From positions 2,688,001-2,752,000 of the forward strand of contig CP084166.1 of the NCBI GenBank assembly GCA_021513695.1: DNA of 64,000 nucleotides. Direction: 5' to 3'. Position numbers and translations under genes: made by a program. Below are positions 5,807 through 60,358 of this stretch, piece by piece (position 1 is the first letter of the stretch; each line of letters opens with the position of its first letter). The notes under the pieces were generated by a model. That model was not told the DNA's origin. It was given only the letters and a program-made list of their open reading frames with translations, and did not search any database. The DNA comes from Candidatus Heimdallarchaeum aukensis. GTDB taxonomy: Archaea; Asgardarchaeota; Heimdallarchaeia; Heimdallarchaeales; Heimdallarchaeaceae.

Positions 5807-7651
5807 TTATATTTCAAGTTCTAATTCTTTAATTTTTTCGGGTGTAGGAATACCATCTTCCCATCCACGTAGCTTATAATACTCTTGTTTCATTTGTTCT
5901 AATTCAACAATTTGTCCTTCTGATGCTCCTTCTGGCATCTTTTCCTCAAGTAGTCGTTTAGGTAATGTGTCATCTTTTCCAGATATTCCTAACTTATTTA
6001 GGATCATCCTTTCTAAATTAGTTATTCTTTCACCTGTCTTCAATAGTTCATCGGTTGTTACGTCCCAACCAGTTACTGGGCCTATCATTTCAGCATACTC
6101 ATCTAAACCAAGAGCAAAAGTTAAGAATAAACAATTAACGCTTGAATTTACTACACTAGTGAAATCTTGGAACGTTTTAGTTAGTTCAGCTTTTCCTTCT
6201 ATTGTGAATCTATCAACATCTCCTAGAACTTCTGCAGCAATAGTATAACCTGTGACATGGCAACCTCCTCGATTAGCTGTAGCATAATTTAATCCAATGC
6301 CTTTTGCTCCTCGTGGGTCATATGCTGGCATTTCTAAACCTTTTACTGACATCGATAATTCAGGAGCTCCATAATGTTCACACATTTTACGTGATCCTTC
6401 TCCAATCCAATAACCTAAACCTTGTCTAAAGGCAGCCATCCATGTGAGTTCTACAATAGCATCAGGGTTTCCAAATTCTACTTTTAATCCTTGTAAATCT
6501 TCTTCAGGTATTAACCCTTTTTCATTTAATTCCATCGCTGCAGCAATTGTGGAGCCAATAGATATCGGATCCATACCAAAGATGTCACAATAGTGGTTAG
6601 CTCGAATAACAGCTCCCATATTGTTGACATTTGTTGTACCTCCTAGTGCCCAAATTGCTTCATATTCAGGACCTTCTGTAAATGAAATCTTATAAGGGCC
6701 AAGTTCAACCTTTGTTTTTCTTCCACAAGCAACAACACAACCCCAACATGGGTGTTTGGAAATCAAATATTTCTCTGTCAAAGTCTCTCCTGAAATATTT
6801 TCTGCTTCTTTATCTACTCCTGTTTGCCAATTTTTAGTCGGGAAAAGACCATTTTGATTGATTATATTAACTAATACTGCAGTTCCATAAGTAGGTAAAC
6901 CTTCTCCTGTGACTCCATTTTCTTTTAGTTTTTCAACATGTTCTTTTACTTTTGTTTCAAATTCCTCTTGTTTAGCAATTTGTGGCTTAGCATTTCCATC
7001 TACAATTATGGCTTTTAACTTCTTTGAACCCATTATAGCTCCTAAACCTGTTCTACCGGCTGCTCTGTGTATTTCATTCATAATTACGGCACAAGGAACA
7101 AGATTTTCTCCTGCTGGGCCTATGCAACTAACTCCTGCTCTTTTTCTTTCGTGTTTTGATTGTAACCACTTTGTAGTGTCTATAGTATTTTTACCCCATA
7201 TTTCGCTAGCATCATGTAATTCTGGTTTTCCATCAATAATAGACAAGTAAACGGGTGTATCACTCTTTCCTTCAATAACAATTCCATCGTATCCTGCAAA
7301 TTTAAGCTTTGCACCCCAAGTACCACCAGTATTTCCAGAACCAATAGATCCTGTGAGAGGAGATTTCAAAGCCATTACATGATGTCTACCACTATTTGGA
7401 GAACGTGTTCCTGTAACTGGGCCTGTAGAAAAGAATAAAACGTTGTCAGGTGATAAAGCATCCATCTCTTTTAAATCTACACCTTTTTTTTCTAATTCTT
7501 TTGCATAATTCCAAAGATAGTAAACAGCTAAACCTTTTCCTCCAATAAATTTGCGTAGTATATCTTCTGGGAAATCAAAATCAGACATTTCTTTTGAACT
7601 TAGATTAACTTTTAACCATTTTCCCATATATCCATAATTCATTTTGCTCAC
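5807..7651 (-). CDS. aor: Aldehyde:ferredoxin oxidoreductase (tungsten/molybdopterin AOR family), canonical length
   Basis: 614 aa. N-terminal AFOR_N-like ('GGKGLAVYYLW', 'GPVTGT...SPLTGSIGSGNTGGTWGAKLKFAGYDGIVIEGKS'). The C-terminal AOR catalytic domain is collinear with the second AOR paralog at 53557..55935. Confidence 0.85.
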   Translation of the reverse strand: MSKMNYGYMGKWLKVNLSSKEMSDFDFPEDILRKFIGGKGLAVYYLWNYAKELEKKGVDLKEMDALSPDNVLFFSTGPVTGTRSPNSGRHHVMALKSPLTGSIGSGNTGGTWGAKLKFAGYDGIVIEGKSDTPVYLSIIDGKPELHDASEIWGKNTIDTTKWLQSKHERKRAGVSCIGPAGENLVPCAVIMNEIHRAAGRTGLGAIMGSKKLKAIIVDGNAKPQIAKQEEFETKVKEHVEKLKENGVTGEGLPTYGTAVLVNIINQNGLFPTKNWQTGVDKEAENISGETLTEKYLISKHPCWGCVVACGRKTKVELGPYKISFTEGPEYEAIWALGGTTNVNNMGAVIRANHYCDIFGMDPISIGSTIAAAMELNEKGLIPEEDLQGLKVEFGNPDAIVELTWMAAFRQGLGYWIGEGSRKMCEHYGAPELSMSVKGLEMPAYDPRGAKGIGLNYATANRGGCHVTGYTIAAEVLGDVDRFTIEGKAELTKTFQDFTSVVNSSVNCLFLTFALGLDEYAEMIGPVTGWDVTTDELLKTGERITNLERMILNKLGISGKDDTLPKRLLEEKMPEGASEGQIVELEQMKQEYYKLRGWEDGIPTPEKIKELELEI

Positions 7652-7741
7652 CTCACGTGAACTACTGAAGTAAACTCTTTCACATATAAAAGATTTTTTG
7701 AAAATTACGAACTTTTTTAAATAGAACAGTTAAAAAAACTC

Positions 7742-9073
7742 TTGATATACTTGTCTAATTTCCCAGAAATAATACAAATTGAACCAACAAATTCATGTAA
7801 TTTCTCTTGCTCTATGTGTTTGTTGTCTTTATGGAAAAATGAGAAAAGAAACTCGATTTCTCTCTCTCTTTTTGAGCATATTGCGCAAGAAACATTTCCT
7901 CATATCTCGCGAGTAGTATTGTATGGAATGGGAGAACCTCTTACACATGAGAAATTTCTTGATCTACTCAGAATAGCAAGAAAATATCTGCAACCTGAAG
8001 GAACAATTGCATTTACGACAAATGGTTCATTATTTAATAACAATATGATTGATGAAGTTCTTGAAAACAATCTTGCAAATGAGATTGTTTTTTCATGTGA
8101 TACTTTTGAAGAAGAAGAGGAGTCATTAGGTCATTCTATGGCAGTAACCACAGTAAGAAAAAATCTGGATTATCTCTTAAAACATGAAAAACGAGGTAGA
8201 ATCAAAGTAGGAATCGAAATTGTTGTGATGAAGAGAAATTATAAATCTCTTGAAAAATCGATACAAATGTTCTGCGATAAGAAAGTGGATTTCATTACAG
8301 TTAGTCATATGTACCCATACAAAGAACATGTCCAAAATGAGACAATGTATACGATGCTTACAGAAGAAGCACTAGATATTTTTGAAGGGTCAGGAGAGAA
8401 ATGGGATGAGCTTATACTTGGTGTAACACGAGAAAAATTCGCAGAATCTATGCAGTTACAATATAGAGAATTATACAAATACAAAGACAGATTAGTAAAA
8501 AAGGAAAGGCCGTATTCAGAAAGATATAATGAATTATTATCTAAAGCAAAAAAGAAAAATGTTCTTTTAAACACTTCATTATACTTGAAAGAAAAAGAAA
8601 AATTAGAACGTTTAAGAGAACTTGAAACAATTTTCAAAAAAATTATTCAAATATCAAAAAAATCAGGGGTAAAAGTTTTTCTTCCTGATATTATCCCATC
8701 TTTTAAACGCAGAGAATGCCCCTATCAATCAAATAATGCTGTAGTTATAAGGTCAGATGGAGAAGTCGTTCCTTGTTTTAAATATCTTTATGATCATCCC
8801 TCATATTTGGATTATCATAGTAGAGAGTCTTCATTCTTTTCTTTTGGGAATGTGAAAAACAATTCTTTTTCAGAGATTTGGAATAGTGCTGATTTTACTT
8901 CTTTTAGAAACAAACTTAAAGATATGAATAAAAATGTTCCATACTGCGGAAACTGCAGTTTCTCGACAAATAATTGTTTTTATGTTACAGAAGGACAAAG
9001 TGATTGTTGGGGAAATGAACCTTTTTGTTCAGAATGTCCATATAGTTTGAATCTTACGAAATGTTTGCTTTAG
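7742..9073 (+). CDS. Radical SAM enzyme with a Cys-rich C-terminal SPASM/twitch-like domain
   Basis: 'EPTNSCNFSCSMC' matches CxxxCxxC. The C-terminus has 'RRECPYQ...VVPCFKY...PYCGNCSFSTNNCFY...CWGNEPFCSECPY'. Confidence 0.7.
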   Translation: MIYLSNFPEIIQIEPTNSCNFSCSMCLLSLWKNEKRNSISLSLFEHIAQETFPHISRVVLYGMGEPLTHEKFLDLLRIARKYLQPEGTIAFTTNGSLFNNNMIDEVLENNLANEIVFSCDTFEEEEESLGHSMAVTTVRKNLDYLLKHEKRGRIKVGIEIVVMKRNYKSLEKSIQMFCDKKVDFITVSHMYPYKEHVQNETMYTMLTEEALDIFEGSGEKWDELILGVTREKFAESMQLQYRELYKYKDRLVKKERPYSERYNELLSKAKKKNVLLNTSLYLKEKEKLERLRELETIFKKIIQISKKSGVKVFLPDIIPSFKRRECPYQSNNAVVIRSDGEVVPCFKYLYDHPSYLDYHSRESSFFSFGNVKNNSFSEIWNSADFTSFRNKLKDMNKNVPYCGNCSFSTNNCFYVTEGQSDCWGNEPFCSECPYSLNLTKCLL

Positions 9074-9204
9074 AGTTTGTTACAAGAATAAGAATGTTAC
9101 TAAAAACAAAAAAGTTCTTTACTTTGAATTATCACTTTATCTTTCGAATTCTATATTGAAAATTTCGTCTACTTTAAGTTTTTTATTTTGCAAAGAATTT
9201 TTAA

Positions 9205-9927
9205 ATGATTACTTTTTCAAAATCTTCGATGGAAGCTATAATTCTTTGTGGGGGATTAGGAACAAGAATTAGAACTATTACTCAAGATTCTATTCCTAAA
9301 GCAATGGTGAAAATTAAAGGTAAAACTATTTTAGAATGGGAAATAGAATGGTTGAATAAATATGGAATTGATCATGTTATTTTAGCAGTAAGACATTTGG
9401 CAGATTACATACAAAAAAACCTTGGTAATAGCTATCAAACTGAAATAGGTAAAGTAAAAATTACTTATAGTAAAGAACCAGAAAAACTTGGTTCAGGAGG
9501 AGCTGTTCGATTTGCTCAAAAACATGTTTCAGATGAGCAAGTTATTATTATGAATGGAGATGTTTTAACAAATTTTAACCTTAAAGAAATGATCGACGAA
9601 CATTTAAAAGGAAATTTAACAGGTACAATAGGCGTTTCAATGATGCGTAGTCCCTACGGGATAGTCGAATTTGATGATAACTTAGTAATATCAGAATTTA
9701 AAGAAAAACCTCTGCTTAATCATTGGATTCACTCTGGTGTTGACATCTTCCAAAAAAAGGTTTTACTTTCTTTTCCTGAAAAAGGTCAGATGGAGGACAC
9801 TATATTTGTAGAACTTGCAAAGAAAAAAGAACTTGCGGTGTTTAAAATAGAACCTAAATATTATTGGAGAAGTATCGATACAACAAAAGATTTCCAAGAA
9901 GCAGAAAAAGATTGGACAGGAATATAA
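9205..9927 (+). CDS. Sugar-phosphate nucleotidyltransferase (NTP_transferase family). The likely true start is at the internal 'MEAIILCGG' (~9229).
   Basis: 'AIILCGGLGTRIRTIT...IPKAMVKIKGKTILEW' is the G-x-G-T-R glycosyl-1-P nucleotidyltransferase signature. Confidence 0.65.
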   Translation: MITFSKSSMEAIILCGGLGTRIRTITQDSIPKAMVKIKGKTILEWEIEWLNKYGIDHVILAVRHLADYIQKNLGNSYQTEIGKVKITYSKEPEKLGSGGAVRFAQKHVSDEQVIIMNGDVLTNFNLKEMIDEHLKGNLTGTIGVSMMRSPYGIVEFDDNLVISEFKEKPLLNHWIHSGVDIFQKKVLLSFPEKGQMEDTIFVELAKKKELAVFKIEPKYYWRSIDTTKDFQEAEKDWTGI

Positions 9928-16778: not shown

Positions 16779-17927
16779 CTATTTATCCTTTTTCTTTTCA
16801 ATATAGGAATAGAAGATTGTATCTATTTCATTTAGTATTATTAGAATTTTTTCTAAGTTAACTTTCATTAAGGAATTGTCAGGCATATTTACTTCAGTTT
16901 CAAAAATTAATACTTGAATAGGATTTCGTAGCCCATCAATAAGAGTTTCTAAATAATCATAACTGTTCTCTAGAAAAGAAAACATTTTGTTACTTTTATC
17001 TTTTTCAACTTCTATTTCCTTATTTCTAGATCTTAACTTACTCTTAATATTAAGTACTCTTAAGGTAAAATATGAAATTATTATAGTTGCAAATCCCAAA
17101 AAAATTTTTATGAATAGAATTAAGTAGTTTTCTTCAGTCTCGAAATAGTTTCTTAAACAATCGTAGTATGATGAATCTTTATCTTGTTTAAGTTCAGAGA
17201 GATAGTGATCTATTGTTCCAAGTAAATAATACTTATTTAAATTATCTTTTCCTGAAGAAAATTTCAAACTAAGAGGGTTAAAAATTATATCTAGCTCTCT
17301 AACTTTTGTGTTTTTCAATTTATAATTATAAAATAAGTTATTTACAACTCCTGCATCTAACTTGTGCTTATCTTCTAAATCTTCAATTAAGTCATCGTAA
17401 TTTTGATACTCTATAAAGGAGCTTTCTATTTTGTATTCATTGAGCAAGTTCTTAATTCCATTATTACTTTTATACATAGGATCATCAACTACAACTCCTA
17501 TTCTTTTATGATGAAGATCAAAAATTGTGTGTATTTCAGAACTAGTTGTTACTACTACTCCCATAGTTGATATAACTGTTTCATTGTTAAATTCTAGACT
17601 ATTATATGTATCAAAAGAGTAGTCAACTGCTAGAATAATGTCAATCTCATTACGAATTGTTTTATTATACACATCAGAAAAAGTTCCAAAATAATAATTG
17701 ATTTTCCAATTTACTTTTAAACCAATATATTCGATTAGATCAATAAAAATCCCTTTTATTGCATCATCTTCTTTAAATGAAAAGGGAGGATTATTGTAAA
17801 TACCTATAGAAACTTCTGTTTGATTGACATCAAAATTGATTGAGGATACATTAATGTAACCTATAGGAAATATAAAGAAACAAACAATAAGAAAAAAAAT
17901 AAAAGGTTTTTTTTTGTATAAATTCAT
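16779..17927 (-). CDS. Membrane sensor-like protein. Signal peptide/TM, extracellular solute-binding (SBP_bac_3-like) domain, one TM, and a short cytoplasmic helical region resembling a degenerate HisKA/DHp. No ATPase domain.
   Basis: 'SIGIYNNPPFSFKEDDAIKGIFIDLIEYIGLKV' resembles family-3 SBPs. The TM is 'LILFIKIFLGFATIIISYF'. The cytoplasmic stretch 'FSFLENSYDYLETLIDGLRNPIQV' is H-box-like but has Tyr where His is expected. Confidence 0.4.
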   Translation of the reverse strand: MNLYKKKPFIFFLIVCFFIFPIGYINVSSINFDVNQTEVSIGIYNNPPFSFKEDDAIKGIFIDLIEYIGLKVNWKINYYFGTFSDVYNKTIRNEIDIILAVDYSFDTYNSLEFNNETVISTMGVVVTTSSEIHTIFDLHHKRIGVVVDDPMYKSNNGIKNLLNEYKIESSFIEYQNYDDLIEDLEDKHKLDAGVVNNLFYNYKLKNTKVRELDIIFNPLSLKFSSGKDNLNKYYLLGTIDHYLSELKQDKDSSYYDCLRNYFETEENYLILFIKIFLGFATIIISYFTLRVLNIKSKLRSRNKEIEVEKDKSNKMFSFLENSYDYLETLIDGLRNPIQVLIFETEVNMPDNSLMKVNLEKILIILNEIDTIFYSYIEKKKDK

Positions 17928-18316: not shown

Positions 18317-18676
18317 ATGAAAATTTTAATCGTGGACGATGATGAAAATATTCGATTTATTTTTTCTAAAGTGTTACAAGGTTATTGTATTAAAACAGCA
18401 ATTAATGGTTTAGAAGCTGTTGAAACTTCGATATCTTGGAATCCTGATTTAATACTAATGGATATTCGTATGCCTATAATGGATGGTATTGAAGCAGCAA
18501 TAAAAATTAAAAATATTAACGAAAATCAGAAAATTATTGGAATTTCAGCTTATAGTGAAATAGAATCTGAACATTTGGAAAACAATCCATTTACTTCTTT
18601 TTTACGAAAACCAATTTCAATTAATCAATTACGTGAAGAAGTGGAAAAGTATTTACAACATAATAAATTTTTGTAG
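18317..18676 (+). CDS. Stand-alone response-regulator receiver (CheY-like)
   Basis: 'MKILIVDDDENIRFIF...DLILMDIRMPIMDG...IGISAY...FLRKP' has all the conserved D/D/T-S/K positions. Confidence 0.75.
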   Translation: MKILIVDDDENIRFIFSKVLQGYCIKTAINGLEAVETSISWNPDLILMDIRMPIMDGIEAAIKIKNINENQKIIGISAYSEIESEHLENNPFTSFLRKPISINQLREEVEKYLQHNKFL

Positions 18677-19719: not shown

Positions 19720-20844
19720 TTACCAGATGTAGAACAATGCTGTGTTTCCATCAAATTCCTGAGGAGCATCTACTCCATGATTTTTTGGATAGTTAGCAAA
19801 AGCATAATCAAAGACATCTTCCATTGGAGTAGTAACATCTCCATTAAAGTGTCCGATTAGGGTGTATTCAAGGAAATAGTATGTCCACATTCCATTTTGA
19901 TGTTCAGAGTCATCATAACCGTATCCTCTCTCTGTACAGGTAGTAGTAAGATAAACATGTTCACTATTTGGCATGTTCATCAAATCATCTCCAAACCCTC
20001 CAGAGTAGCAATGGTCTAAAAAGACGAAAATTCTATCTGCAACAGCATTATCTAAAATTGCTGCTAACTCTGTATCATAGAGATTTCCATCTTCTCCGTT
20101 TTCTCCTGAACTGCAGTCCCACATACATAAGTAGGAAGACCCTCTTCCATTACCCGAACCATGACCACTACTGATAAATGCAATTACATCATCACTATCA
20201 GCCGAAGCAACCATGTCTTGTAAGGCTTGCTTTACATTATATTCTGTAGCTAGGCCATCATATTTTGGGTAATTATCGGTATGTCCATCACCGAGAACAA
20301 CTATGTGCTCATATCCAATTCCATTCAAATAATTATACCAATCGGTTGCATCTTCGTCACAATAAGAGAGATCACTTATTGCTTTGTAGTCGCTAATGCC
20401 AACTAAAACTGCCCAATGCTCTACTTCAGTAGAGGGTGGTGGAGTAGCATCATTTGCAACTGTTACAGAAATGGTGTCAGAACCAGTTTGTCCACCACTA
20501 TCAGTAGCTGTTGCTTCAATTGTGTGAGAACCATCAGCATAAGCTGTTGTATCCCAATCATATTGATTTGCATGAACAATGAATACACCGTCTATATAGA
20601 TATCTGCTATGAGATCTCCATCTTCTTTATCAGTAGCTGAAACTAAAATAGTAACAACTCCACTAACTGTATCTCCATTAGATGGAGAATCAATGGAAAC
20701 TGTAGGAGCTTTATTTAGACCAGGTGGGACAAGAGGTTTTGCTCTCACATTAGCCTGAGTTTGTAATGGTATCATAGTAATAAGAAAAGCTCCAATCACC
20801 AAAACTGTAAATATTGTTATCTTTTTTTTCATTTTTTTCACCAA
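19720..20844 (-). CDS. Secreted caspase-family (C14, metacaspase/orthocaspase-like) cysteine peptidase with N-terminal Ig-like domain(s)
   Basis: Signal peptide 'KKITIFTVLVIGAFLITMIP'. Caspase-domain start 'HWAVLVGISDYK'. His motif 'AFISSGHGSGNG' and Cys motif 'FVFLDHCYSGGF'. Confidence 0.65.
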   Translation of the reverse strand: MVKKMKKKITIFTVLVIGAFLITMIPLQTQANVRAKPLVPPGLNKAPTVSIDSPSNGDTVSGVVTILVSATDKEDGDLIADIYIDGVFIVHANQYDWDTTAYADGSHTIEATATDSGGQTGSDTISVTVANDATPPPSTEVEHWAVLVGISDYKAISDLSYCDEDATDWYNYLNGIGYEHIVVLGDGHTDNYPKYDGLATEYNVKQALQDMVASADSDDVIAFISSGHGSGNGRGSSYLCMWDCSSGENGEDGNLYDTELAAILDNAVADRIFVFLDHCYSGGFGDDLMNMPNSEHVYLTTTCTERGYGYDDSEHQNGMWTYYFLEYTLIGHFNGDVTTPMEDVFDYAFANYPKNHGVDAPQEFDGNTALFYIW

Positions 20845-21028
20845 ATAAACTTGGTTGATTGAAATTATTTAAACAATTATTTAAATACTATGTTAAAATT
20901 ATTTCACTTTTTTATTAACTAGTAATGCATAAAAGTAAAAAATAGCATAAAAGGCAAAAAAAATGACCTGACACCAAATATGAAGCAAAGAACATAATAT
21001 TTTGTTTTTTAAAAAAAAGAAAAAAGAG

Positions 21029-22048
21029 TTATGGAGCTTGAATTAGACCATAACCAAATTCTGGATCCCAACCAGGTTCACCAAGATCTAAAGCATTGTT
21101 GATTAACCAATCTTTAACTGCAGCAGGATCTCTTTGTCCACCCATTGCTAGATAGAGAGCAACTAAACCACTTACATGTGGGCAAGCCATGGATGTACCA
21201 GAGAGTGTATCATAACCTCCGTTTTTGTAGGTGGAATAAATACTTACTCCAGGAGCAGCAAAATCTAGAAATGGACCAGAGTTTGAGAAACTGGCAATTG
21301 TGTCGTCTTTGTCCGTTGCTCCAACAGCTATAACTTCATCGTATGCTGCTGGCCAACTGTATTCGTCAGTTGTTGGATCACCATCTCCTTCATTTCCTGC
21401 AGCTGCTACAATAGTAATTCCAGCGTTATAAGCATCGATAATTGCATTGTGAACTTCTTCACCAGGGTCTCCAGAAGCGCCTAGAGACATGCTAATAACA
21501 TCAGCATCGTCTTCTGTACCAACAACACCATCAGGCCCTTCCATTGCAAGATATATTCCTGTGATTAAATCATCCCAATCTCCACGACCGCCAGCTCCTA
21601 GAACCTTTATGGCATAGATTTGGACATTAGCATACATACCTACTACTCCATTGTTGTCTCGAATAGCTCCTATTGTTCCAGCTACGTGAGTTCCATGACC
21701 ATTTTTATCATCAGGATCTCCTCCTCCTGTAGCGTCAACAGCCCAAGCAATATTTGGCATTAAGTCTGGATGATCTAAATCGATACCAGAATCCAGAATA
21801 GCTACTTGAACTGCAGTTGTATATTGGTCACCATAATAAGCACCATTAAAAACTCGTTCGATACCCCAAGGAGTCTCTGGATCATCATCTTGCCAATCAT
21901 AAGTTGTATCATCTCCTCCTCCAAATAGCCAATCAGGAGGACCAGCAAGTGCGAAGGATTGTTTAGCGTAACTTGAAATGGGTACAGCGATTAGACCTAG
22001 TATTAGGGTTGCTAGTAATATACTTTTTATGCTTTTCATTTTTATCAC
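21029..22048 (-). CDS. Secreted subtilisin-like serine protease (S8)
   Basis: Signal peptide, then the D/H/S triad motifs 'VAILDSGID', 'HGTHVAGTIGA' and 'GTSMACPHVSG'. Confidence 0.85.
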   Translation of the reverse strand: MIKMKSIKSILLATLILGLIAVPISSYAKQSFALAGPPDWLFGGGDDTTYDWQDDDPETPWGIERVFNGAYYGDQYTTAVQVAILDSGIDLDHPDLMPNIAWAVDATGGGDPDDKNGHGTHVAGTIGAIRDNNGVVGMYANVQIYAIKVLGAGGRGDWDDLITGIYLAMEGPDGVVGTEDDADVISMSLGASGDPGEEVHNAIIDAYNAGITIVAAAGNEGDGDPTTDEYSWPAAYDEVIAVGATDKDDTIASFSNSGPFLDFAAPGVSIYSTYKNGGYDTLSGTSMACPHVSGLVALYLAMGGQRDPAAVKDWLINNALDLGEPGWDPEFGYGLIQAP

Positions 22049-22292
22049 TTTTTATATGGTTGTGTTCAACCAAAAGAAAGTTCATATTATCTTATAAAAA
22101 CATTGTGTCAAATTTTTATAAGTAAATACTTATTTGAAAAAACGGCGCACTTGCTTGCCTTAGTTTAACAAATTGTTTGCCTTACAAGTTTCTGAAAAAA
22201 GGAGTTTAATTGCGGGGTAACAGTTGTTTTTTGATACCTACAAAAAAGTTGGTTGAGACAAAGGGATAAAAATATAAATGTTAATTTGAAAT

Positions 22293-22793
22293 ATGTCTCT
22301 GAGTAACATGCAATTGAAAAAGAAATTGTTATTATTAATTATTGGTTTCATAGTATTTAGTTCTTTAGTGAGAGCGCTTCCTCAAGATGATTCAGTTTCA
22401 ACTAACTCTACAGATAATTTGTTGAGACTATCACTTTATGATGCTTCTTATAACGATTTTGATGATGATGGAAGAATGGATGATGTTGAGTGTTTTCTTG
22501 ATATCATGATTTCAGATGACTTGAACAGGAAAAATTTTATCTGTGATATATCAATTTATCTGCCTAATGGAGATAGTTATGAATATAGTATCTTAGTATC
22601 TATGAAGTATGATAGCATAACACTCAGAATCGTTTTCATGAATCATGCATATGTTTCTGGAGATTATAGAATCAAAGTGGAAATAAATTTATTTACATCT
22701 GGTTTCTACTATGATGAAACAGAAATAGTTTTTGATCCACCAAGTGAAGAAATTCCTGATGATGAACCATTTATAACTTACTCCACAGTATAA
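22293..22793 (+). CDS. Small secreted acidic protein (hypothetical), divergent from the S8 protease
   Basis: N-terminal hydrophobic signal 'KKLLLLIIGFIVFSSLVRA'. D/E-rich mature part. Confidence 0.4.
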   Translation: MSLSNMQLKKKLLLLIIGFIVFSSLVRALPQDDSVSTNSTDNLLRLSLYDASYNDFDDDGRMDDVECFLDIMISDDLNRKNFICDISIYLPNGDSYEYSILVSMKYDSITLRIVFMNHAYVSGDYRIKVEINLFTSGFYYDETEIVFDPPSEEIPDDEPFITYSTV

Positions 22794-22844
22794 TTATAAT
22801 TTAAAGAATATATTTTAAAAAATTCTGAAAGCAGTTGCTAGAGG

Positions 22845-23969
22845 GTGCCTATTGGATTGATTACAAAAACAGACTACCAATTACTAATCTTATTGCAATC
22901 TAAGCCTACAATTAGCTATTCTGATATTGCACGCATTTTTAATATAAGTTCAGCAACTGCAAAAAGAAAAATTGTTGAATTAAGAAATAAAGGATTATAT
23001 TCTGGTAAGTATGCACAATTTTATCCTACAGCTTTAGGGCTGAATAAATTTATAGTGGTTTCTTTTGTTAAGAGTATTAAGCAAATTTTAATGCTTGAAA
23101 AAGCTCTACGAGAACACCCTTATACAATTCACAGATCAAGGATTTATTCGCCTAAACTAGGTATCTACTCTGAATTTAATTTTCCAATGGAGAATACAAG
23201 TTTTTTAGAAGAGTTTTTTGACAATCTAAAAAATGAAAAGGTGATTGACTCTTTCACCATTTTTGAATCAACCCATATTGAGAAAACGTTACCATTAAAT
23301 CTCAATAAAGTTAGTTTAGATACTCTTAGTTGGGAATATGATTGGAATACCTTAAAAGAATCCTTAGACAAAACAGAAAAAGCTGTTATTCCTGTTCCTC
23401 CCCGAAATATGCTTAAATCTATGAAAGAACTTGATTTTAAGATCTTAAGCATTCTTACCGTTAATGCAGATTATTCTCAGAGAGAGATAAGTCGGATGTT
23501 AAAAAGAGATAGAACTGAAGTTTGGAGAAGATTCAAGTTTCTTGAAGAGAATATTATATCTGGATATCGTTCCAAAATTAATCGTCAAAAATTTAACATC
23601 ACAAGCAATAAAATCATTTTCTTAAGGTTTGAAGATGAGTTGGAACTCTGGCAATATTTTTCTCTTCTTTCTGACGAACAACTGCGCCCTCCTTTTCGAT
23701 ATAGAATAGAAATATTAAAAGAAAAAAATTCTATGAAGAAAATCTTTCAAATTTATATTTCACTTCCTCAAAATCATGAGGCCCAGTTATTTTACTTTAT
23801 TGCAGATAATACGGATTTTGAGAGTTATAATATTGATACAGTAGGTACTCATGGTGTAAGATATTCCTTTTATGAACCTAATTTTGATTATAATGATTGG
23901 GAATGGAAAATAAACAGAAAATATGTTGTAACTGACCCTATTAGAAATATTATACCTAAAAAAATCTGA
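22845..23969 (+). CDS. Putative regulator with two AsnC/Lrp-type HTH domains and no RAM domain
   Basis: 'DYQLLILLQSKPTISYSDIARIFNISSATAKRKIVELRNKGL' and 'LDFKILSILTVNADYSQREISRMLKRDRTEVWRRFKFLEENIISG'. Confidence 0.5.
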   Translation: MPIGLITKTDYQLLILLQSKPTISYSDIARIFNISSATAKRKIVELRNKGLYSGKYAQFYPTALGLNKFIVVSFVKSIKQILMLEKALREHPYTIHRSRIYSPKLGIYSEFNFPMENTSFLEEFFDNLKNEKVIDSFTIFESTHIEKTLPLNLNKVSLDTLSWEYDWNTLKESLDKTEKAVIPVPPRNMLKSMKELDFKILSILTVNADYSQREISRMLKRDRTEVWRRFKFLEENIISGYRSKINRQKFNITSNKIIFLRFEDELELWQYFSLLSDEQLRPPFRYRIEILKEKNSMKKIFQIYISLPQNHEAQLFYFIADNTDFESYNIDTVGTHGVRYSFYEPNFDYNDWEWKINRKYVVTDPIRNIIPKKI

Positions 23970-33702: not shown

Positions 33703-35064
33703 TTATAGTAAAAGCTTTGCTGCTTTATTTTGTTTTTTCCAATATTGGTTATATAGAATCACAGGTTTCTTTAAAGGAGTACTTGCTTCAATTTTTTTTA
33801 TCCACGTTTTTGTTTTTTCTACACTTAATGTAAAAGCTTTTTTCGTAATCTTTTTTAGCTCTTCTTTGTCTTTTTTGGATAATTTTCCTGTAATTTTACT
33901 TATTTTCTCATAGGTTTCTTGTATAAATTGTCTTTCTAATTCATCACGTTCAGATCTATACATATTTAATCGATTGACATAGTCCGTTAATACGAGTCGG
34001 TGTAGTTTTTCGTGAATCCACCAAAGATTATCAGGATCGTAAGTAGAGCTAATAGCTTTTTTCTCATTTTCTTTTCCAATACCCGGTAGAAAAATAGGTT
34101 TAAAGATACTAGTACACGGAGCTGACGTTCCAGTAACCCAATGAATCTGTATATTCTCTTTTAAATGTGAAACCATTGAGCCAGTACTCTGGCTGGGTGT
34201 CATCATTGAAGTTGCATGTAAACAAGGACTTTTCATTGAACTTTTGTGTGGAGCCCATTTTTCTTCTTTTTTTGATTGGATGTTATGATCTCGTAAAACA
34301 CTCATTACTATTTCAGGAGTAATCTCTCCTTTATGTTTTTCAAGAAGGAATTGAGTTCTTTTTTTTCTCTTTTTACCCATGGCGCCAATTTGATTAATAT
34401 TTAATTTTTGAACAAAACATTTGGTAAAATCAAAATCTTCTTCTGATTTGCAGTAACCCTTTTTTACAGCGTAATCAACCAATTCTGGGTGTATAAGATC
34501 ATATTCTTTTCCAATTGTAATGGTGTTAGAGATTGTTCTAACTCCTTTTACTTTTTCAGCAATCCAAAATTTATCTGCTGTCTCTAGAACCCATGCTTCT
34601 TTTTTATCTGCAATGATGAAAGAATTGTGATAAAAGAGTTTCTTATCGGTATAGCCTCCTGGACCTCCTTGACCATATTCTTCTAACAATTTAGTGATTA
34701 AAGTCAAAGCTTCAGAAGCAGTTTTTGTACGTTCTAAAGCTAAACGCATCAGATCCATTCCTAAAAGACCTATTTTTCTATAGGGCATTTTAGTCCAAAC
34801 AGCTTCATTACCTATAGTTACTCCAAATTCATTACTCCCCATTTCGCACCCCCAAATCCAGAAGGGTTTGAGGAGTAACACTTCATATGTTTCCTCTACT
34901 TGAGGGATGTTAAGATAAGTTGTTCTAACAGTTTCCTCTTCATGTTTCTTTCTGGGATAATATTCAATAACATGAACTTCATTTGGTTCTCTATCAGAAT
35001 TTTTTCCAAATATTACACTCCCATCCTTCGTTGCATCTCCAATAGCTACAATTGTATCGCACAT
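33703..35064 (-). CDS. Peptidase C69-like dipeptidase (Ntn-hydrolase; N-terminal Cys nucleophile)
   Basis: The protein begins 'MCDTIVAIGDATKDGSVIFGKNSDREPNEV'. Cys2 followed by 'KNSDR' is typical of C69. Confidence 0.6.
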   Translation of the reverse strand: MCDTIVAIGDATKDGSVIFGKNSDREPNEVHVIEYYPRKKHEEETVRTTYLNIPQVEETYEVLLLKPFWIWGCEMGSNEFGVTIGNEAVWTKMPYRKIGLLGMDLMRLALERTKTASEALTLITKLLEEYGQGGPGGYTDKKLFYHNSFIIADKKEAWVLETADKFWIAEKVKGVRTISNTITIGKEYDLIHPELVDYAVKKGYCKSEEDFDFTKCFVQKLNINQIGAMGKKRKKRTQFLLEKHKGEITPEIVMSVLRDHNIQSKKEEKWAPHKSSMKSPCLHATSMMTPSQSTGSMVSHLKENIQIHWVTGTSAPCTSIFKPIFLPGIGKENEKKAISSTYDPDNLWWIHEKLHRLVLTDYVNRLNMYRSERDELERQFIQETYEKISKITGKLSKKDKEELKKITKKAFTLSVEKTKTWIKKIEASTPLKKPVILYNQYWKKQNKAAKLLL

Positions 35065-35108: not shown

Positions 35109-36554
35109 CTATCTGTATTTCTCGATAAGATAAGCGATAAGTTCCATTCCTTTAATCCAGTCTTCGACAAATATGTTCTCATTTGGAGCATGAGCATTAG
35201 AATCAGCATGACCTGTCCCTATTGATACACAAGGAATATCCTTAAACAGATACATAGGACCAGATCCTCCCACAATTGGCCAACAAATTGGATCGTGGTT
35301 ATAAACCTCTTTTATAACAGAAATAACTTTTTGGGCAAATTCATTTTCGATAGGAGTAACAGCTGCAGGATAACCATCCCATGAAGTTATCTCAATATGA
35401 GAAAAGTTTTGTTCATCTAAGTAAGTTCTAATTTTTTTAACTAAATCGTCTGGATTTTGTCCTGGAACCAATCTACAATCTACTTTAGCAAATGCTTCAT
35501 TTGGTGTAACGGTTTTACTTCCTTGTCCTTGGTATCCACTCCATATTCCACAAATATTAAGAGTAGGTTCGAGGAAATATTTTTTCTTTAAATCCATTCC
35601 TGATAAATTCATTCTGAATTTTTCAATCCCAAATGACTCTTTTAGATGTTCTTCTTTAATTTTAAATTCTCTTATTGTCTTCATCTCTTTCTCAGAGGGG
35701 GGTGTTATATTTTCATAAAAACCAGGAACAAGTATTTTGTCTTTTCTATCTTTGAGTGAACTTAAGGCCCAAACCAGTTCATAAGCTGCATTATCGACAA
35801 ACTGTGTATATCCAGAATGAATATCTCGTCCTATTGTTTTTGTATGAAAATGTAGGTATAGAATTCCTTTAACTCCTAAATTTACTTGCTGGATTCCATC
35901 CTTGTCCTTTCCTCCAAACTCCCAAATAATGCCATCTGTGTTTAGAGCAAAATCTTTGTTTTTCTCTACAAAATATCCTAAATTGGGGCTACCTATTTCT
36001 TCTTCTCCTTCTAATATAAATTTAATATTGACGGGTAACTCTCCAAAGATTTCTTTATAAGCTTTTATTGCTTGTAGCCTACAAATTATTTCTCCTTTAT
36101 TATCCGCGACACCACGAGCAAAGATCTTTCCTTCTCGAATAGTAGGTTCAAATGGAGGACTTTCCCATAATTCTACTGGGTCTTCAGGTTGAACATCATA
36201 ATGATCATAAAAACTGATTGTTTTTTCTGCTCCTGAATTTAACTCTGCACAAAAAACAGGGTTACCTGGTGTTTCTGCAACAAAGAAGTCAAATCCCGCT
36301 TCTTTAAAAATTTTCGTTAGAAAATCGATCGCTTCTTCTGTCCCTAATTTTTTTGCTGCAACTGTAGGGATTCTTAAAAATTCAAATAACAAGTCAAGAG
36401 ACTTTTCTTTATTTTGGTGAATAACTTTTGAAACATCATGAGAAGACATGATTAGTAATTGTTTGTTTAATTTATAAACTCTTTCGTTAAAATTAAGCTT
36501 TAAACTATTGATTATAAAAATTAAGAAAAATAGGATAAAACGTCTTTTAGGCAA
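35109..36554 (-). CDS. M20-family metallopeptidase (ArgE/DapE/carboxypeptidase-like). The start is probably the internal 'MSSHDV'.
   Basis: 'ISFYDHYDVQP...WESPPFEPTIREGKIFARGVADNKG' and 'HAPNENI' give the M20 metal-ligand pattern. Confidence 0.65.
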   Translation of the reverse strand: MPKRRFILFFLIFIINSLKLNFNERVYKLNKQLLIMSSHDVSKVIHQNKEKSLDLLFEFLRIPTVAAKKLGTEEAIDFLTKIFKEAGFDFFVAETPGNPVFCAELNSGAEKTISFYDHYDVQPEDPVELWESPPFEPTIREGKIFARGVADNKGEIICRLQAIKAYKEIFGELPVNIKFILEGEEEIGSPNLGYFVEKNKDFALNTDGIIWEFGGKDKDGIQQVNLGVKGILYLHFHTKTIGRDIHSGYTQFVDNAAYELVWALSSLKDRKDKILVPGFYENITPPSEKEMKTIREFKIKEEHLKESFGIEKFRMNLSGMDLKKKYFLEPTLNICGIWSGYQGQGSKTVTPNEAFAKVDCRLVPGQNPDDLVKKIRTYLDEQNFSHIEITSWDGYPAAVTPIENEFAQKVISVIKEVYNHDPICWPIVGGSGPMYLFKDIPCVSIGTGHADSNAHAPNENIFVEDWIKGMELIAYLIEKYR

Positions 36555-42863: not shown

Positions 42864-43844
42864 CTATTCATCTTGAAAATCTCTTATTAGGGTAACTTCA
42901 AAGAGTGGTGCAGCTTTTACAGACCAGAAAACTTGTTTATCTATTATATTGCTTAGAAGGTAACGCGTTATTTCAGTTTCAGTTAAACCTGTTTTTGTTT
43001 TCTTGATACCTTGTAAATCCTTCACAAATTCTATCAACAATTTCGTTAATAGATTTGTAGATCTTATTTGTTCCATTCTGGTGGTAACTAACCAACACGA
43101 AACAGAATCATCAGCAGCCATGATAAACTGACGGTCTCTATATTTCAAAATTTCAATTATAGGAAAATGACTAGAAGAAAATTTACACTGAATGACTGGA
43201 GATAAAATATCAGAGTTCAAATTAGATTGAGGAGTAGTTAATCTCATCTCGTAAACTCCCTTATCAGTTTTGATGTAAGAAATAAACATCTCAACAGTTA
43301 TTTTGTCAACTATTAATTGTTGGATAATGCTTGAAGCTAACCAATTAATTGTTCTATCAAAATTTTTTCCTGAACTAAAGGATGTGCTTAAATACTCGAT
43401 GTTTTTTTTTCTTACTCCATCTGAAAATTTCTTAACTATGGATTTTACTTCAGAGTTAGAGAATTCTTCATCTCTCATGTTAAATAATACTAAAACAGGA
43501 TTTTCTTCTTTTAACCAATTTAAAGAGCGAGTAAACCACTTTTTAGATTCATGTAGCTGATCTTTTTTAGTAATATCTGTAACATAAATAAGTGCATCAG
43601 AGCGAGAAATAAAACTCTTCCATAAGGTCTTTCTAAAAGAAGGAAGACCACCTAAATCAGTAATATCTAATATTATACCATCGGCATTATATAACTCGTG
43701 GTTAACTCCCATTGTAGAAGTGATAATGGTGTTGTTGTAACCTAATAGACGGTTAATGAAATAAGTTTTGCCAGAATTTTCTAATCCAGCAACAGTAACA
43801 GAAATATCACGTTTCAAATAATAATAATTCGGTGACACATCCAA
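42864..43844 (-). CDS. Rag/Gtr-like small GTPase with a C-terminal extension of about 150 aa (possible roadblock/longin-type domain)
   Basis: G1 'VAGLENSGKTYFINRL'. Switch-I Thr in 'IITSTMGV'. G3 'LDITDLGG'. 'ALIYVTDI' then 'VLVLFNMRDEE' parallel RagA 'VLIYVFDV' and 'LVHKMDL' (an H/N-K/M-x-D G4 variant). 326 aa matches Rag length. Confidence 0.55.
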   Translation of the reverse strand: MDVSPNYYYLKRDISVTVAGLENSGKTYFINRLLGYNNTIITSTMGVNHELYNADGIILDITDLGGLPSFRKTLWKSFISRSDALIYVTDITKKDQLHESKKWFTRSLNWLKEENPVLVLFNMRDEEFSNSEVKSIVKKFSDGVRKKNIEYLSTSFSSGKNFDRTINWLASSIIQQLIVDKITVEMFISYIKTDKGVYEMRLTTPQSNLNSDILSPVIQCKFSSSHFPIIEILKYRDRQFIMAADDSVSCWLVTTRMEQIRSTNLLTKLLIEFVKDLQGIKKTKTGLTETEITRYLLSNIIDKQVFWSVKAAPLFEVTLIRDFQDE

Positions 43845-44274: not shown

Positions 44275-45282
44275 TTGAGTTTAAAAGGATATATACTCAG
44301 ACGAACAATCTACATAGTTCCTATTATGCTTGCAATTACACTAATGAACTTTACACTGATTAACATCAGTCCAGGAGATCCTGTTTTAGTAAGATTAGGA
44401 CTGATTAAATGTGAAACACCTGAATGTTACAACGCAGCGTACAACAAAGAAGCAATAGAAATGGGACTACTAGATAATAGTTTATACACTGTTCCATGGT
44501 TCGAAAGATATATAGATTTTGTAAATGATCTATTGCATTTCGACCTAGGAAAAAGCTGGTCATATACCCAAGCAGGAGAAGGGATACCGATATCGAAAAT
44601 AATTGGAGACCACGCAGTTTATACGGTGGTGCTAAACTTACTATCATTTGTTTTATCACTATTATTATCAACAGCAATAGGGGTAGTATCAGCAACAAGA
44701 CAAAACAGTTTCTGGGATAGAACACTAACAGTAGCAATGCTATTAGGATATTCTATGCCTTTGTTCTGGTTAGCAAAATTGTTAATGCTAGTGTCCTATT
44801 ATTTATTTAACTTTACAGGAGTAGCAAACAAATCGGCGTTTAACAAACCGTTAATACTGAACCCGATGTTCTATAAGTTCTTAATATTACCAACATTGTC
44901 ACTAACACTGGGTGGACTAGTGTTCATGGCAAGGTTAATTAGATCACAACTGCTGGAGATATTAAGACAAGATTACATAACAACTGCAAAATCAAAAGGA
45001 TTAGATAGAAGAGCAGTAATATACAAACACGCGTTCAGAAATGGTTTATTGCCTATAGTAACAATTATAGGAAATTCACTACCAGGATTACTATCCGGGT
45101 CAGTAATGGTTGAGTCAGTCTTCGGATGGCCAGGATTAGGAACAATATTCCTAGAAGCTGCATTTATGAGAGATTATCCAATGATGATGGCAACAAACAC
45201 AATATTTCCATTCCTGTTCCTAATAGCAAGATTGCTGACAGATATAACCTATGTCTTTATAGACCCGAGAATAAAATACTAA
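44275..45282 (+). CDS. oppB: Oligopeptide/dipeptide ABC transporter permease (OppB/DppB-like)
   Basis: 6 TM. 'EAA'-loop region 'ITTAKSKGLDRRAVIYKHAFRNGLLPIVT'. Confidence 0.8.
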   Translation: MSLKGYILRRTIYIVPIMLAITLMNFTLINISPGDPVLVRLGLIKCETPECYNAAYNKEAIEMGLLDNSLYTVPWFERYIDFVNDLLHFDLGKSWSYTQAGEGIPISKIIGDHAVYTVVLNLLSFVLSLLLSTAIGVVSATRQNSFWDRTLTVAMLLGYSMPLFWLAKLLMLVSYYLFNFTGVANKSAFNKPLILNPMFYKFLILPTLSLTLGGLVFMARLIRSQLLEILRQDYITTAKSKGLDRRAVIYKHAFRNGLLPIVTIIGNSLPGLLSGSVMVESVFGWPGLGTIFLEAAFMRDYPMMMATNTIFPFLFLIARLLTDITYVFIDPRIKY

Positions 45283-45301
45283 AAGAGGAGAGTAAAGAAA
45301 A

Positions 45302-46363
45302 ATGGCAACAGTTGATAAAAAAGCAGTAGAAGAGGAAGGACCAATTCTAGATGAAACAACTTTAAAAGAAATTGAAAGCATGAAAGGAGCAGGACAATGG
45401 TCTATTGTATGGAGAAGATTGAAAAAGGATACAATGGGAATGGTAGGATTATACATTGTAACATTCCTAATATTGATGGCAATAGTGTCCTGGTTCTTAC
45501 TAATGTACGATAAATGGCTATTTAATAATGTAGCACTAACAAGAGATCCAGATAATCCATACTCACTAGCTAATCTATATGTAGACTTCTGGCTACCTGG
45601 AATGAAGGAACCAATAATACTGTTCCAACATCCAGAATGGCAATTCGCAGATCAAGTAAAATTGCCACCAAGCATTGAACACCCATTTGGAACAGATAAA
45701 AACGGAAGAGATATGTTCTCAAGAGTGTTCTTTGGAGCTACAATATCAATGGCTCTAGGTTTCATTGGACAAATGACAACCGTAATCATCGGAACAATTT
45801 TAGGATCACTTTCTGGATATTATGGTGGATTATTTGACGACATCCTACAAAGAATAGTAGAATTACTATACTCAATGCCTGGATTTATCTTGCTAGTGTT
45901 CGTAATCGTGCTATTCGAAAATACAAATATACCAGGAGGAAGATACGCAGTAGTAGTAATATTCTTCTCACTAATAAGCTGGGGAGGAACAGCACTTATA
46001 GTAAGATCGAACTTCTTCTCGCTAAAACAACAAGACTTTGTAGAAGCAGAAAAAGCACTAGGGGCAGCAGACATGAGAATAATATTCAGACATATACTAC
46101 CAAACTCACTAGCACCACTGATAATTATAATAACGCTAGGTATAGCAGGAACAATATTCACATTCGCAGCACTAGCATTCTACGGATTCGGAGACCCAAA
46201 CGTCGTTTCCTGGGGTGACGACCTTAACCGCTGGCAAAATGATCTCATGACTTATCCGTGGATGCCCATGTTTCCCGCTCTAATGATATTTTTCACAGTG
46301 TTGGGTTTCAACTTACTTGGTGACGCCCTTCGTGATGCTCTTGATCCTCGTTTGAAAGATTAA
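45302..46363 (+). CDS. oppC: Oligopeptide/dipeptide ABC transporter permease (OppC/DppC-like)
   Basis: 'VEAEKALGAADMRIIFRHILPNSLAPLII' is the EAA loop. N-terminal extension before TM1 is typical of OppC. Confidence 0.8.
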   Translation: MATVDKKAVEEEGPILDETTLKEIESMKGAGQWSIVWRRLKKDTMGMVGLYIVTFLILMAIVSWFLLMYDKWLFNNVALTRDPDNPYSLANLYVDFWLPGMKEPIILFQHPEWQFADQVKLPPSIEHPFGTDKNGRDMFSRVFFGATISMALGFIGQMTTVIIGTILGSLSGYYGGLFDDILQRIVELLYSMPGFILLVFVIVLFENTNIPGGRYAVVVIFFSLISWGGTALIVRSNFFSLKQQDFVEAEKALGAADMRIIFRHILPNSLAPLIIIITLGIAGTIFTFAALAFYGFGDPNVVSWGDDLNRWQNDLMTYPWMPMFPALMIFFTVLGFNLLGDALRDALDPRLKD

Positions 46364-60347: not shown

Positions 60348-60358
60348 GTGAATAAAGA

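Follow-up and report, generated by a model that had tools for sequence, protein, structure and literature searches.

A recurrent archaeal cassette of a small exported Ig-like protein and a double Lrp-like regulator adjoins exported caspase-fold and subtilisin proteases in Candidatus Heimdallarchaeum aukensis and other archaea

Eukaryotes have no closer known relatives than the Asgard archaea, of which those in culture live on peptides and amino acids; to our knowledge, how they obtain these nutrients and control the enzymes that they export is largely unknown. Here we describe a locus in a 64,000-nucleotide (nt) stretch of Candidatus Heimdallarchaeum aukensis (contig CP084166.1, positions 2,688,001 to 2,752,000; hereafter the window, in whose own numbering positions are given). 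In it, the genes of two exported endopeptidases, a caspase-fold cysteine peptidase of family C14 and a subtilisin of family S8, lie beside those of a small exported acidic protein and a regulator related to Lrp/AsnC. Across archaea, the invariant core of this arrangement is an operon in which the small gene precedes the regulator gene, and the variable partner is an exported C14 or S8 enzyme, Heimdallarchaeum having both. We put the probability that the locus is a conserved module for the amino-acid-responsive control of exported endopeptidases at roughly 55%. The genome is one of two circularised Heimdallarchaeum genomes, and these genes were not discussed in its description (PMC8813620).

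An original prediction, made from the DNA sequence, had placed four open reading frames (ORFs) within positions 19720-23969, and all four were found where it put them:

19720..20844, minus strand: C14 peptidase gene (exported Big_7 plus caspase-fold protein, metacaspase/orthocaspase type; 374 amino acids (aa); Pfam, alignment, AlphaFold2 (AF2))
20845..21028, minus strand: spacer between the S8 and C14 genes (read directly from the sequence)
21029..22048, minus strand: S8 gene (exported subtilisin, S8A, Tk-subtilisin-like; 339 aa; Pfam, alignment)
22049..22292, not assigned to a strand: divergent control region between the S8 and small genes (AT-rich)
22293..22793, plus strand: gene of the small exported acidic protein (166 aa; no family match)
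22845..23969, plus strand: gene of the cytoplasmic basic regulator (tandem Lrp/AsnC-like; 374 aa; Pfam, PDB profile matches)

The small gene and, behind it, the regulator gene are divergent from the S8 gene, which is followed by the C14 gene. To place this layout among its relatives, loci were gathered by a scan with the C14 alignment over one genome per species (80 loci with 10-kb flanks) and from five exact-protein matches, and all ORFs of these 85 C14-anchored loci were searched with the four window proteins. A narrow metagenome scan with the regulator alignment gave 10 loci, and family hidden Markov models (HMMs) were then run over 98 loci in total. By these models, the small gene lies directly upstream of 30 of the 31 unique full-length regulators, on the same strand and at a median gap of 46.5 bp; the lone regulator without it is on a 1.4-kb contig. 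Within 1.5 kb of 27 of the 31 there is a C14 (22) or S8 (5) gene. Among the C14-anchored loci (n = 85), 23 hold a small-protein homolog and 24 a regulator homolog. The module occurs in Heimdallarchaeota, Promethearchaeum syntrophicum MK-D1 (L036), Lokiarchaeum ossiferum (L044), Harpocratesius (L015), and Bathyarchaeia (L076, L084), with the cassette divergent from the protease gene, co-directional downstream of a minimal C14 gene, or upstream. Such varied layouts point to functional linkage rather than inherited synteny. In P. syntrophicum MK-D1 (NZ_CP042905.2), numbered within locus L036, the regulator gene occupies 7363-8550, the small gene 8704-9270, and the C14 gene 9449-11581.

Which protease accompanies the cassette varies. 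A Heimdallarchaeote whose C14 enzyme is 53% identical to that of the window has the small and regulator genes divergent from the C14 gene and no S8 gene; identity to the window proteins falls to 24% for its small protein (E = 8e-8) and to 25% for its regulator, aligned in full (E = 2e-24). The small proteins most like that of the window (53%–58% identity) are encoded beside S8 genes with no C14 gene, either in the order S8, small, regulator (L086) or with an S8-fn3 gene divergent from the cassette (L087, L088). In the regulator-anchored scan, one locus (L092) has S8, one further gene, small, and regulator, and another (L093) is at a contig edge. S8 was found at four of the five protease-independent anchors (reached via the small protein or the regulator) that leave room to judge. 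The C14+S8 pair, whose conservation in relatives the original prediction had held up as a thing to look for, was rejected as a conserved unit: S8 accompanies C14 in 2 of the 80 species-level scan loci and in 2 of the 85 C14-anchored loci overall (L006, L063). The first of these, from the sister species H. endolithica, reproduces the synteny exactly, with the SHMT gene downstream as well, and the second is looser. The window arrangement is accordingly an S8-type module with a C14 gene appended. Taken one by one, the proteins belong to known kinds, as new members or as variants, with the small family in no database. We found no description of a module of protease, Ig-like protein, and double Lrp-like regulator in the literature searched, whose coverage is incomplete, so that this is absence of evidence; nor did that literature hold anything specific on Lrp-linked archaeal extracellular proteases. 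What began as an isolated observation of two proteases has become a recurrent and testable module, present in the cultured P. syntrophicum MK-D1 and L. ossiferum.

Several neighbours of the cassette were recorded on their own account. Pairs of ABC exporter half-transporters (ABC_membrane plus ABC_tran, ~580–630 aa) lie by it in four unrelated loci (L086, L088, L090, L061) and are a possible further recurrent partner. A protein of 431–434 aa with a C-terminal Big_1/CarboxypepD_reg-like domain is encoded between the S8 and small genes in two loci (L063 13358-14662; L092 4934-6229). On one Heimdallarchaeote contig (L071 7600-12344), two complete cassettes flank a single minimal C14 gene (269 aa).

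The C14 protein is 100% identical to the annotated 'hypothetical protein K9W45_11965' (P0001, 370 aa), and the length of this public annotation implies that the true start is probably the ATG at 20832. The Pfam scan places Peptidase_C14 (PF00656; E = 1.7e-10; 41.5 bits against a cut-off of 21.4) at residues 143-326 and Big_7 (E = 2.2e-10) at residues 47-111. A C13 match was weaker (19.4 bits, under its cut-off), and the Pfam scan gave no C11 or C25 match at E<=0.1. The protein is laid out as a leader (~1-32), an Ig-like Big_7 domain (47-129), a Pro-rich linker, and the catalytic domain (142-374). Its AF2 model, with a predicted local distance difference test score (pLDDT) of 81, shows the leader as a helix, Big_7 as a beta-sandwich, and the catalytic domain, which is mostly confident, as alpha/beta. 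Searched against PDB with Foldseek, the model matched GSU0716, the Arabidopsis metacaspases AtMC9 and AtMC4, yeast Yca1, Candida metacaspase 1, and T. brucei MCA2 (TbMCA2), as well as MALT1, legumain/AEP (among the top matches), and caspases 3, 7, and 9, with E-values of 1e-10 to 1e-6 for GSU0716, AtMC9, Yca1, MALT1, TbMCA2, and the caspases; model and matches agree on the caspase/hemoglobinase alpha/beta fold.

A 19-member profile of the family also matches metacaspases by sequence (Yca1, E = 1e-10), with SGHG (H227) and DHCYSGG (C278) in register with SGHG and DSCHSG of Yca1 and AtMC4. The original reading of a caspase-family enzyme with these His and Cys motifs and an Ig-like fusion is thereby borne out by Pfam, the 19-sequence alignment, the Yca1 alignment, and Big_7. 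YCDEDA aligns with the metacaspase GCINDA, C161 and D164 being the CxxD motif, and D276 stands two residues before C278; all five residues (H227, C278, C161, D164, D276) are invariant across the 19 sequences. In the alignment, C161, D164, and D276 correspond to Cys92, Asp95, and Asp211 of TbMCA2, which make up the acidic S1 pocket and so confer a preference for basic P1 residues (PMC6426788, PMC4357240). Since these metacaspase residues are conserved, the enzyme is predicted to cleave after Arg or Lys and not after Asp. Metacaspases have a p10 domain besides p20, following it in types I and II and preceding it in type III; in the window enzyme, some 95 conserved residues (TTTCTxxGYGYD, NGxWTY) follow the catalytic Cys, and of the 233 positions of the Pfam profile the match reaches 189.

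The window enzyme belongs to a large family, mainly of Asgard archaea and Bathyarchaeia, of exported caspase-fold enzymes whose dyad is intact. The C14 search returned 629 matches at E<=1e-3, the top 120 all better than 1e-99, centred on Asgard archaea (Heimdall-, Hod-, Thor-, Loki/Prometh-, Njord-, and Hermod-archaea), with members in Bathyarchaeia and a few in Thermoplasmata; H. endolithica has at least four paralogous loci. Lengths run from ~265 aa (leader plus catalytic domain) to 1496 aa, the longer homologs having additional Big, PPC, CUB, fn3, and Y_Y_Y domains. The complete members listed, minimal ~265-aa forms included, begin with leader-like N-termini. Among the 87 homologs of the fetched loci, 86 keep SGHG and 83 keep DxCx[SA]GG, so they are not pseudo-enzymes. 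In cultured Lokiarchaeum ossiferum, the cassette-linked homolog (L044 7103-11593) has 1496 aa, as against 374 aa in the window. It had been claimed that secreted archaeal caspase homologs are poorly characterised, and this holds: a 2019 survey only lists the Big_7 architecture, in 15 of 93 archaeal p20 proteins (PMC6426788). The window enzyme is of this already listed orthocaspase type and is functionally uncharacterised, and the literature searched held nothing specific on Asgard caspase homologs or Heimdallarchaeum proteases.

The second protease was predicted to be a classical D/H/S subtilisin, and so it proved. Its 339 aa match Peptidase_S8 (PF00082; E = 6.7e-60; 203 bits), and D86, H118, and S286, in the motif order D[ST]G, HGTH, and GTSMA, align to the triad of Tk-subtilisin, its closest solved relative (E = 1.7e-65; 46% identity over the whole mature domain). 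The true start is probably the ATG at 22039. Subtilisins normally need a propeptide to fold. The alignment of the window enzyme begins at residue 32 against residue 67 of pro-Tk-subtilisin, about the mature N-terminus; because of this, it appears to consist of a leader and a mature domain with no propeptide between them. Only ~57 residues separate the leader from D86, and Pfam gave no I9 propeptide match in the protein. The calcium-binding insertion loop of Tk-subtilisin, DGVADKDGDGIIAGDPDDDA, which is required for folding of that enzyme, is mostly deleted and reduced to DGVVGTEDDAD in the HMMER alignment. The build is common to an Asgard-specific S8 clade (~336–361 aa; 54%–97% identity), in which the catalytic Asp is at residues 78-100; among the relatives examined that do bear a propeptide it is at 115-142, and archaeal proteins related more distantly (394–426 aa) have an extra N-terminal region. 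An Asgard subtilisin clade that does without the propeptide poses a concrete protein-folding question.

Both proteases and the small protein begin with a Lys-rich N-terminus and a hydrophobic stretch of 14–15 aa (Kyte-Doolittle 2.8–3.0), followed by small-residue -3/-1 sites (QAN|V, SYA|K, VRA|L), and we found no lipobox Cys, twin-Arg motif, or later transmembrane (TM) segment in any of the three. They are likely exported by the Sec route; judging from sequence, their leaders would be cleaved rather than kept as N-terminal anchors. Putative signal peptides and aligned catalytic residues, on which the original prediction depended, are both present, with leader-type N-termini on all three proteins. 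The small protein has an isoelectric point (pI) of 4.08 and a D+E content of 17.5% (21% of the putative mature part). Both proteases are as acidic, and the acidity of all three is mainly due to Lys/Arg depletion (K+R 0.04–0.07 vs ~0.13, which is typical of the other window proteins). Only four window proteins have a pI <4.3, namely these three and a leader-bearing 980-aa protein encoded at 56079-59021. If the exported C14 enzyme cuts after Arg/Lys, the low K+R might, speculatively, limit self-digestion.

The gene products divergent from the proteases are, as predicted, a small acidic secreted protein and a double helix-turn-helix (HTH) Lrp-like regulator, in keeping with the ORFs, the leader, and the HTH matches. 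The small protein comprises a leader (1-28), a flexible linker (~29-43), and what is modelled as a generic eight-strand Ig-like beta-sandwich (44-165). A leader followed by a variable linker, the motifs LPxG and NxAxxSGxY, and an invariant FDPP (147-150) followed by a short tail are features of its family; AF2 makes this C-terminal tail a confident strand of the sandwich (pLDDT ~94). A subset of the family has a DxDxDG-like acidic loop (residues 55-64 of the window protein). No match was found in Pfam, NCBIfam, or PADLOC, and neither an inhibitor or propeptide family (I9, BsuPI PF12690) nor a specific structural match, chagasin-type proteins included, was detected. A word-indexed homolog search gave six close relatives, and an exhaustive profile search gave 218 clusters at E<=1e-3, a list that carries neither taxonomy nor gene context; nearly all are stand-alone proteins of 150–170 aa. 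Three giant multi-repeat matches (P0254, P0274, P0297) were rejected as fusions of the domain, sharing only short Ig-type repeat motifs.

The regulator (pI 9.3) has matches to HTH_24 (65 bits) and an AsnC-type HTH (57 bits), each in two stretches at approximately residues 6-51 and 193-235 (Pfam), in agreement with the two AsnC-type HTH domains claimed for this 374-aa protein. The accompanying claim that it has no RAM sensor domain was not supported in that form. Both halves match Lrp/AsnC crystal structures (7fby, PH0140, LrpA, FL11) in alignments that reach chain residue ~98, past the HTH and into RAM beta1-alpha1. Aligned profile to profile, the N-terminal and C-terminal halves are homologous (96.8% probability) over 157 columns, that is, the HTH and ~110 residues beyond it, and on this ground we interpret the protein as a tandem duplication of a whole Lrp/AsnC-like unit, with a winged HTH, a ~110-aa domain, and an NFD...W tail occurring twice. 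The regulator gene starts 51 bp after the small gene, and the two are probably co-transcribed.

Candidate control elements were read in both spacers. Between the protease genes, an oligo-T run (T6CT8, coding strand) directly follows the S8 stop, and two TTTAAATAA TATA-like boxes stand ~30–45 nt before the C14 start; because of these elements, the spacer suggests that C14 has a promoter of its own and that S8 and C14 are separate transcripts. The divergent region 22049-22292 has TATA-like elements on both sides and a GC-rich 12-nt direct repeat, TTGCTTGCCTTA / TTGTTTGCCTTA, at 22151-22162 and 22173-22184 (22-bp spacing), which we regard as a candidate operator. In H. endolithica the repeat has one mismatch, in a divergent spacer that is 96% identical as a whole, and the S8-C14 spacer is 89% identical with an indel in its middle; at these identities the two species are too close for footprinting of either spacer to be informative.

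Feast/famine-family effector domains bind amino acids, and regulators of this family are typically linked to amino-acid metabolism. With this background we infer that the window regulator would sense amino-acid status and act on the divergent promoter region, setting the expression of S8, of its own operon, and possibly of C14. The exported subtilisin, of broad specificity, and the orthocaspase-like enzyme would then cut extracellular or cell-surface proteins, and the resulting peptides could feed the Opp importer and the C69/M20 peptidases of a peptide-fermenting organism, whereas the small protein might tether proteases or substrates at the cell surface or provide regulatory input.

A number of points weigh against this interpretation. 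The tie between regulator and proteases is, in our analysis, one of guilt by association, and the ligand-binding domain that it presupposes gave no AsnC_trans_reg match (RAM, PF01037) in Pfam. As it was the C14 query that brought in most loci (L006-L085), C14 linkage is over-sampled, and only five protease-independent anchors are informative. One cassette has no protease (L094), and another adjoins an alpha/beta-hydrolase gene with the C14 gene 7 kb away (L061). The regulator homolog at L090 is shorter (263 aa) and lacks a gene of the small family; its neighbours are ABC exporters and a small Ig-like protein of Big_1 type, which is unrelated. Opp, C69, and M20 are 10–40 kb off and show no synteny with the module. 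Finally, a role of the proteases in surface maturation fits the data equally well.

Under that alternative, the proteases would mature or remodel proteins of the cell's own envelope or surface, and surface architecture would be what the module controls. Processing is a frequent role of clan-CD enzymes, legumain and gingipains among them, and legumain/AEP is prominent among the fold matches of the C14 model; C14 paralogs of up to 1496 aa have adhesin-type domains (Big, PPC, CUB, fn3, Y_Y_Y) typical of surface proteins, and the small partner is Ig-like, as surface proteins are. However, the locus gave no envelope or S-layer genes, genes for peptide uptake and for peptidases abound in the window, the window enzymes lack a membrane or C-terminal anchor, and the regulator's family ties to amino-acid metabolism also speak against it, so that we hold it to be unlikely. 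Another proposal concerns the small protein, which the original prediction offered as a candidate propeptide, inhibitor, or chaperone and which could be a dedicated trans-acting inhibitor or folding chaperone, substituting for the propeptide of the adjacent protease. The window S8 enzyme and its whole Asgard clade lack the propeptide, most of the calcium loop that helps Tk-subtilisin fold is also gone, and the nearest homologs of the small protein adjoin S8 genes. Yet the small family equally accompanies caspase-fold enzymes, an unrelated catalytic class, and S8-fn3 enzymes with an apparent pro-region, whose catalytic Asp (~residue 141; L087, L088) is ~50 residues further from the leader; together, these pairings weaken the case for a dedicated trans-propeptide. 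The small protein also occurs with no protease nearby (L094), and no fusion to a protease was seen among the 218 clusters and no I9 or BsuPI match in Pfam. Its constant partner is the regulator (30 of 31) and not one type of protease, so that the part of a general accessory or regulatory partner seems likelier for it than that of a dedicated propeptide or foldase, and we consider the dedicated role doubtful.

The invariant operon of small protein and regulator beside a variable exported protease would also fit an extracellular signalling circuit, in which the small protein is cut by the protease and a fragment is re-imported (e.g., by Opp) and bound by the effector domains of the regulator. 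The conserved C-terminal tail after the invariant FDPP and the Opp importer genes in the window could be read in the same way. We nonetheless think such a circuit very improbable: the small protein is a folded 120-aa domain rather than a short pro-peptide, AF2 builds its tail into the sandwich, the regulator lacks a TPR domain, the known ligands of RAM-type domains are amino acids and not peptides, and Opp is not syntenic with the module. A broader and quite unlikely idea is that the FDPP Ig-like protein and the double Lrp-like regulator constitute an unrecognised archaeal device for sensing and controlling proteolysis outside the cell. The exported protein would serve as bait, tether, or source of a signal relayed, for example, through imported cleavage products, and the regulator would set the expression of whichever exported protease adjoins. 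A further possibility of this kind, independent of the device, is that the large exported C14 expansion of Asgard archaea could bear on how eukaryotic metacaspases or luminal clan-CD enzymes arose.

The composition of the protease genes has a bearing on their origin. The original prediction noted that their guanine-plus-cytosine (GC) content is higher than that of the flanks, which is correct: GC is 0.420 in the 1-kb interval 21001-22000 vs ~0.28–0.30 in the flanks. It saw in this a hint of horizontal gene transfer (HGT) or expression bias, and this part failed. We calculated the GC expected when each amino acid is encoded at window-wide codon frequencies (32 genes; standard deviation (SD) 0.008). 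The C14 and S8 genes, at 0.378–0.379 and 0.420 vs ~0.30, have expected values of 0.378 and 0.421, leaving observed-minus-expected differences of +0.001 and -0.001. The excess is confined to the first two codon positions (GC1 0.51 and 0.61), with third-position GC (GC3) of 0.229 and 0.197 vs ~0.21 in the window. Gly, Ala, Asp, and Pro together make up 31% of the C14 and 42% of the S8 protein, and because the proteases are rich in these residues and their codon usage is native, the raised GC is fully due to amino-acid composition; the windowed GC and codon checks against the 64-kb window gave no foreign or expression signal. HGT and expression bias were accordingly rejected as causes, and a false lead was removed. 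The true synonymous-codon outliers of the window are the OppB/C-type permease genes and one OppD/F-type ATPase gene (59298-60347), with observed-minus-expected GC of +0.017, +0.026, and +0.019 and GC3 of 0.26–0.30 vs ~0.21; if foreign origin or expression bias is to be sought here, the candidates are these Opp genes and not those of the proteases.

That the protease genes are a recently acquired foreign island, or belong to a caspase/subtilase system of antiviral defence or cell death, is in our view extremely improbable. GC of 0.38–0.42 against flanks of ~0.30 suggests an island, but by GC3 and the synonymous-codon test the genes are native, both enzymes are most closely related to proteins of other Asgard archaea, and synteny is kept with H. 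endolithica. For defence there are generic PADLOC domain matches ('caspase', 'subtilase') and an NCBIfam caspase_w_EACC1 match of 44 bits, far under its cut-off of 140, as is IteS (12.6 vs 900); both enzymes have export leaders and lack NTPase, sensor, or effector partners. Membership in EACC1-caspase and IetAS systems was rejected on these family scores.

Elsewhere in the window, genes for peptide uptake and degradation were located:

33703-35064: C69 peptidase gene
35109-36554: M20 peptidase gene
44275-46363: OppB/C-type permease genes
59298-61564: OppD/F-type ATPase genes

Genes of an aldehyde:ferredoxin oxidoreductase and an Fe-ADH are also present. The original prediction joined the Opp and C69/M20 genes to the proteases in one extracellular protein-degradation module. 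The genes are real and extracellular proteolysis is the most economical interpretation, but Opp, C69, and M20 fall outside the module: being distant, and not present around the related loci for which gene tables were read, they are context and not members. Just upstream of the OppD/F-type ATPase genes, the minus-strand gene at 56079-59021 encodes the 980-aa acidic protein mentioned above, with a leader-like N-terminus, some TM-like hydrophobic segments, and nothing in Pfam at E<=1e-5; a very divergent substrate-binding or surface protein is one possibility. The window also encodes a small GTPase of the Arf family (326 aa; 42864-43844, minus strand; Pfam Arf, E = 7e-19), one of the eukaryote-like signature proteins typical of Asgard archaea. 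A 382-aa protein encoded immediately upstream of the locus (16779-17927, minus strand) has a hydrophobic N-terminus, SBP_bac_3, a hydrophobic segment, and a C-terminal tail, and divergent from its gene is that of a 119-aa stand-alone response-regulator receiver (18317-18676, plus strand). Both genes have GC of 0.25–0.26, and they could form a signalling pair that senses amino acids.

Returning to amino-acid-responsive control of exported proteolysis, the parts of the module can be set beside known systems. With orthocaspases and type I metacaspases (MEROPS C14B; e.g., Microcystis MaOC1, Geobacter GSU0716 (3bij), yeast Yca1, TbMCA2), the C14 enzyme shares the fold, the His-Cys dyad, and the acidic S1 residues. 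It is only 15%–18% identical to solved metacaspases, has a Sec-type leader whereas characterised C14B members are intracellular, and, unlike them, is part of a large expansion centred on Asgard archaea and Bathyarchaeia and has a regulator cassette linked to it. Lloyd et al. in 2013 reportedly proposed that extracellular clan-CD peptidases (clostripain C11, gingipain C25) serve protein degradation in sediment archaea (Bathyarchaeia, MBG-D). In both cases clan-CD cysteine peptidases, predicted to be specific for Arg/Lys, are exported by anaerobic sediment archaea that take up peptides; the difference is in the family, which is C14 here. The subtilisin has in common with Tk-subtilisin (Thermococcus kodakarensis, S8A; PDB 2z2z, 2e1p) the triad, PPDWLFGGG vs KPSWLGGG, and PWGIERV. 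Tk-subtilisin has a 69-aa propeptide, whereas in the window enzyme the leader joins the mature domain directly, and its sequence marks it as a relative that has apparently lost its propeptide. In the Bacillus PlcR-PapR-NprB and NprR-NprX-NprA systems (RRNPP), protease genes adjoin a regulator and a small exported protein; by analogy only, an exported protease is likewise encoded in the window alongside these two kinds of partner, and the genome has an Opp importer. The regulator fold is Lrp-like vs TPR, and the small protein is a folded 166-aa Ig-like protein vs a pro-peptide of ~40–50 aa. Like Lrp/AsnC proteins (P. furiosus LrpA (1i1g), Pyrococcus FL11, PH0140), the window regulator has an AsnC-type winged HTH with homology into the start of RAM, and is basic, cytoplasmic, and encoded beside its likely targets. 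Known members are single units of ~150 aa that oligomerise, whereas the window regulator fuses two units in 374 aa, with effector-like domains too divergent for PF01037 and a conserved NFD...W extension at the end of each unit.

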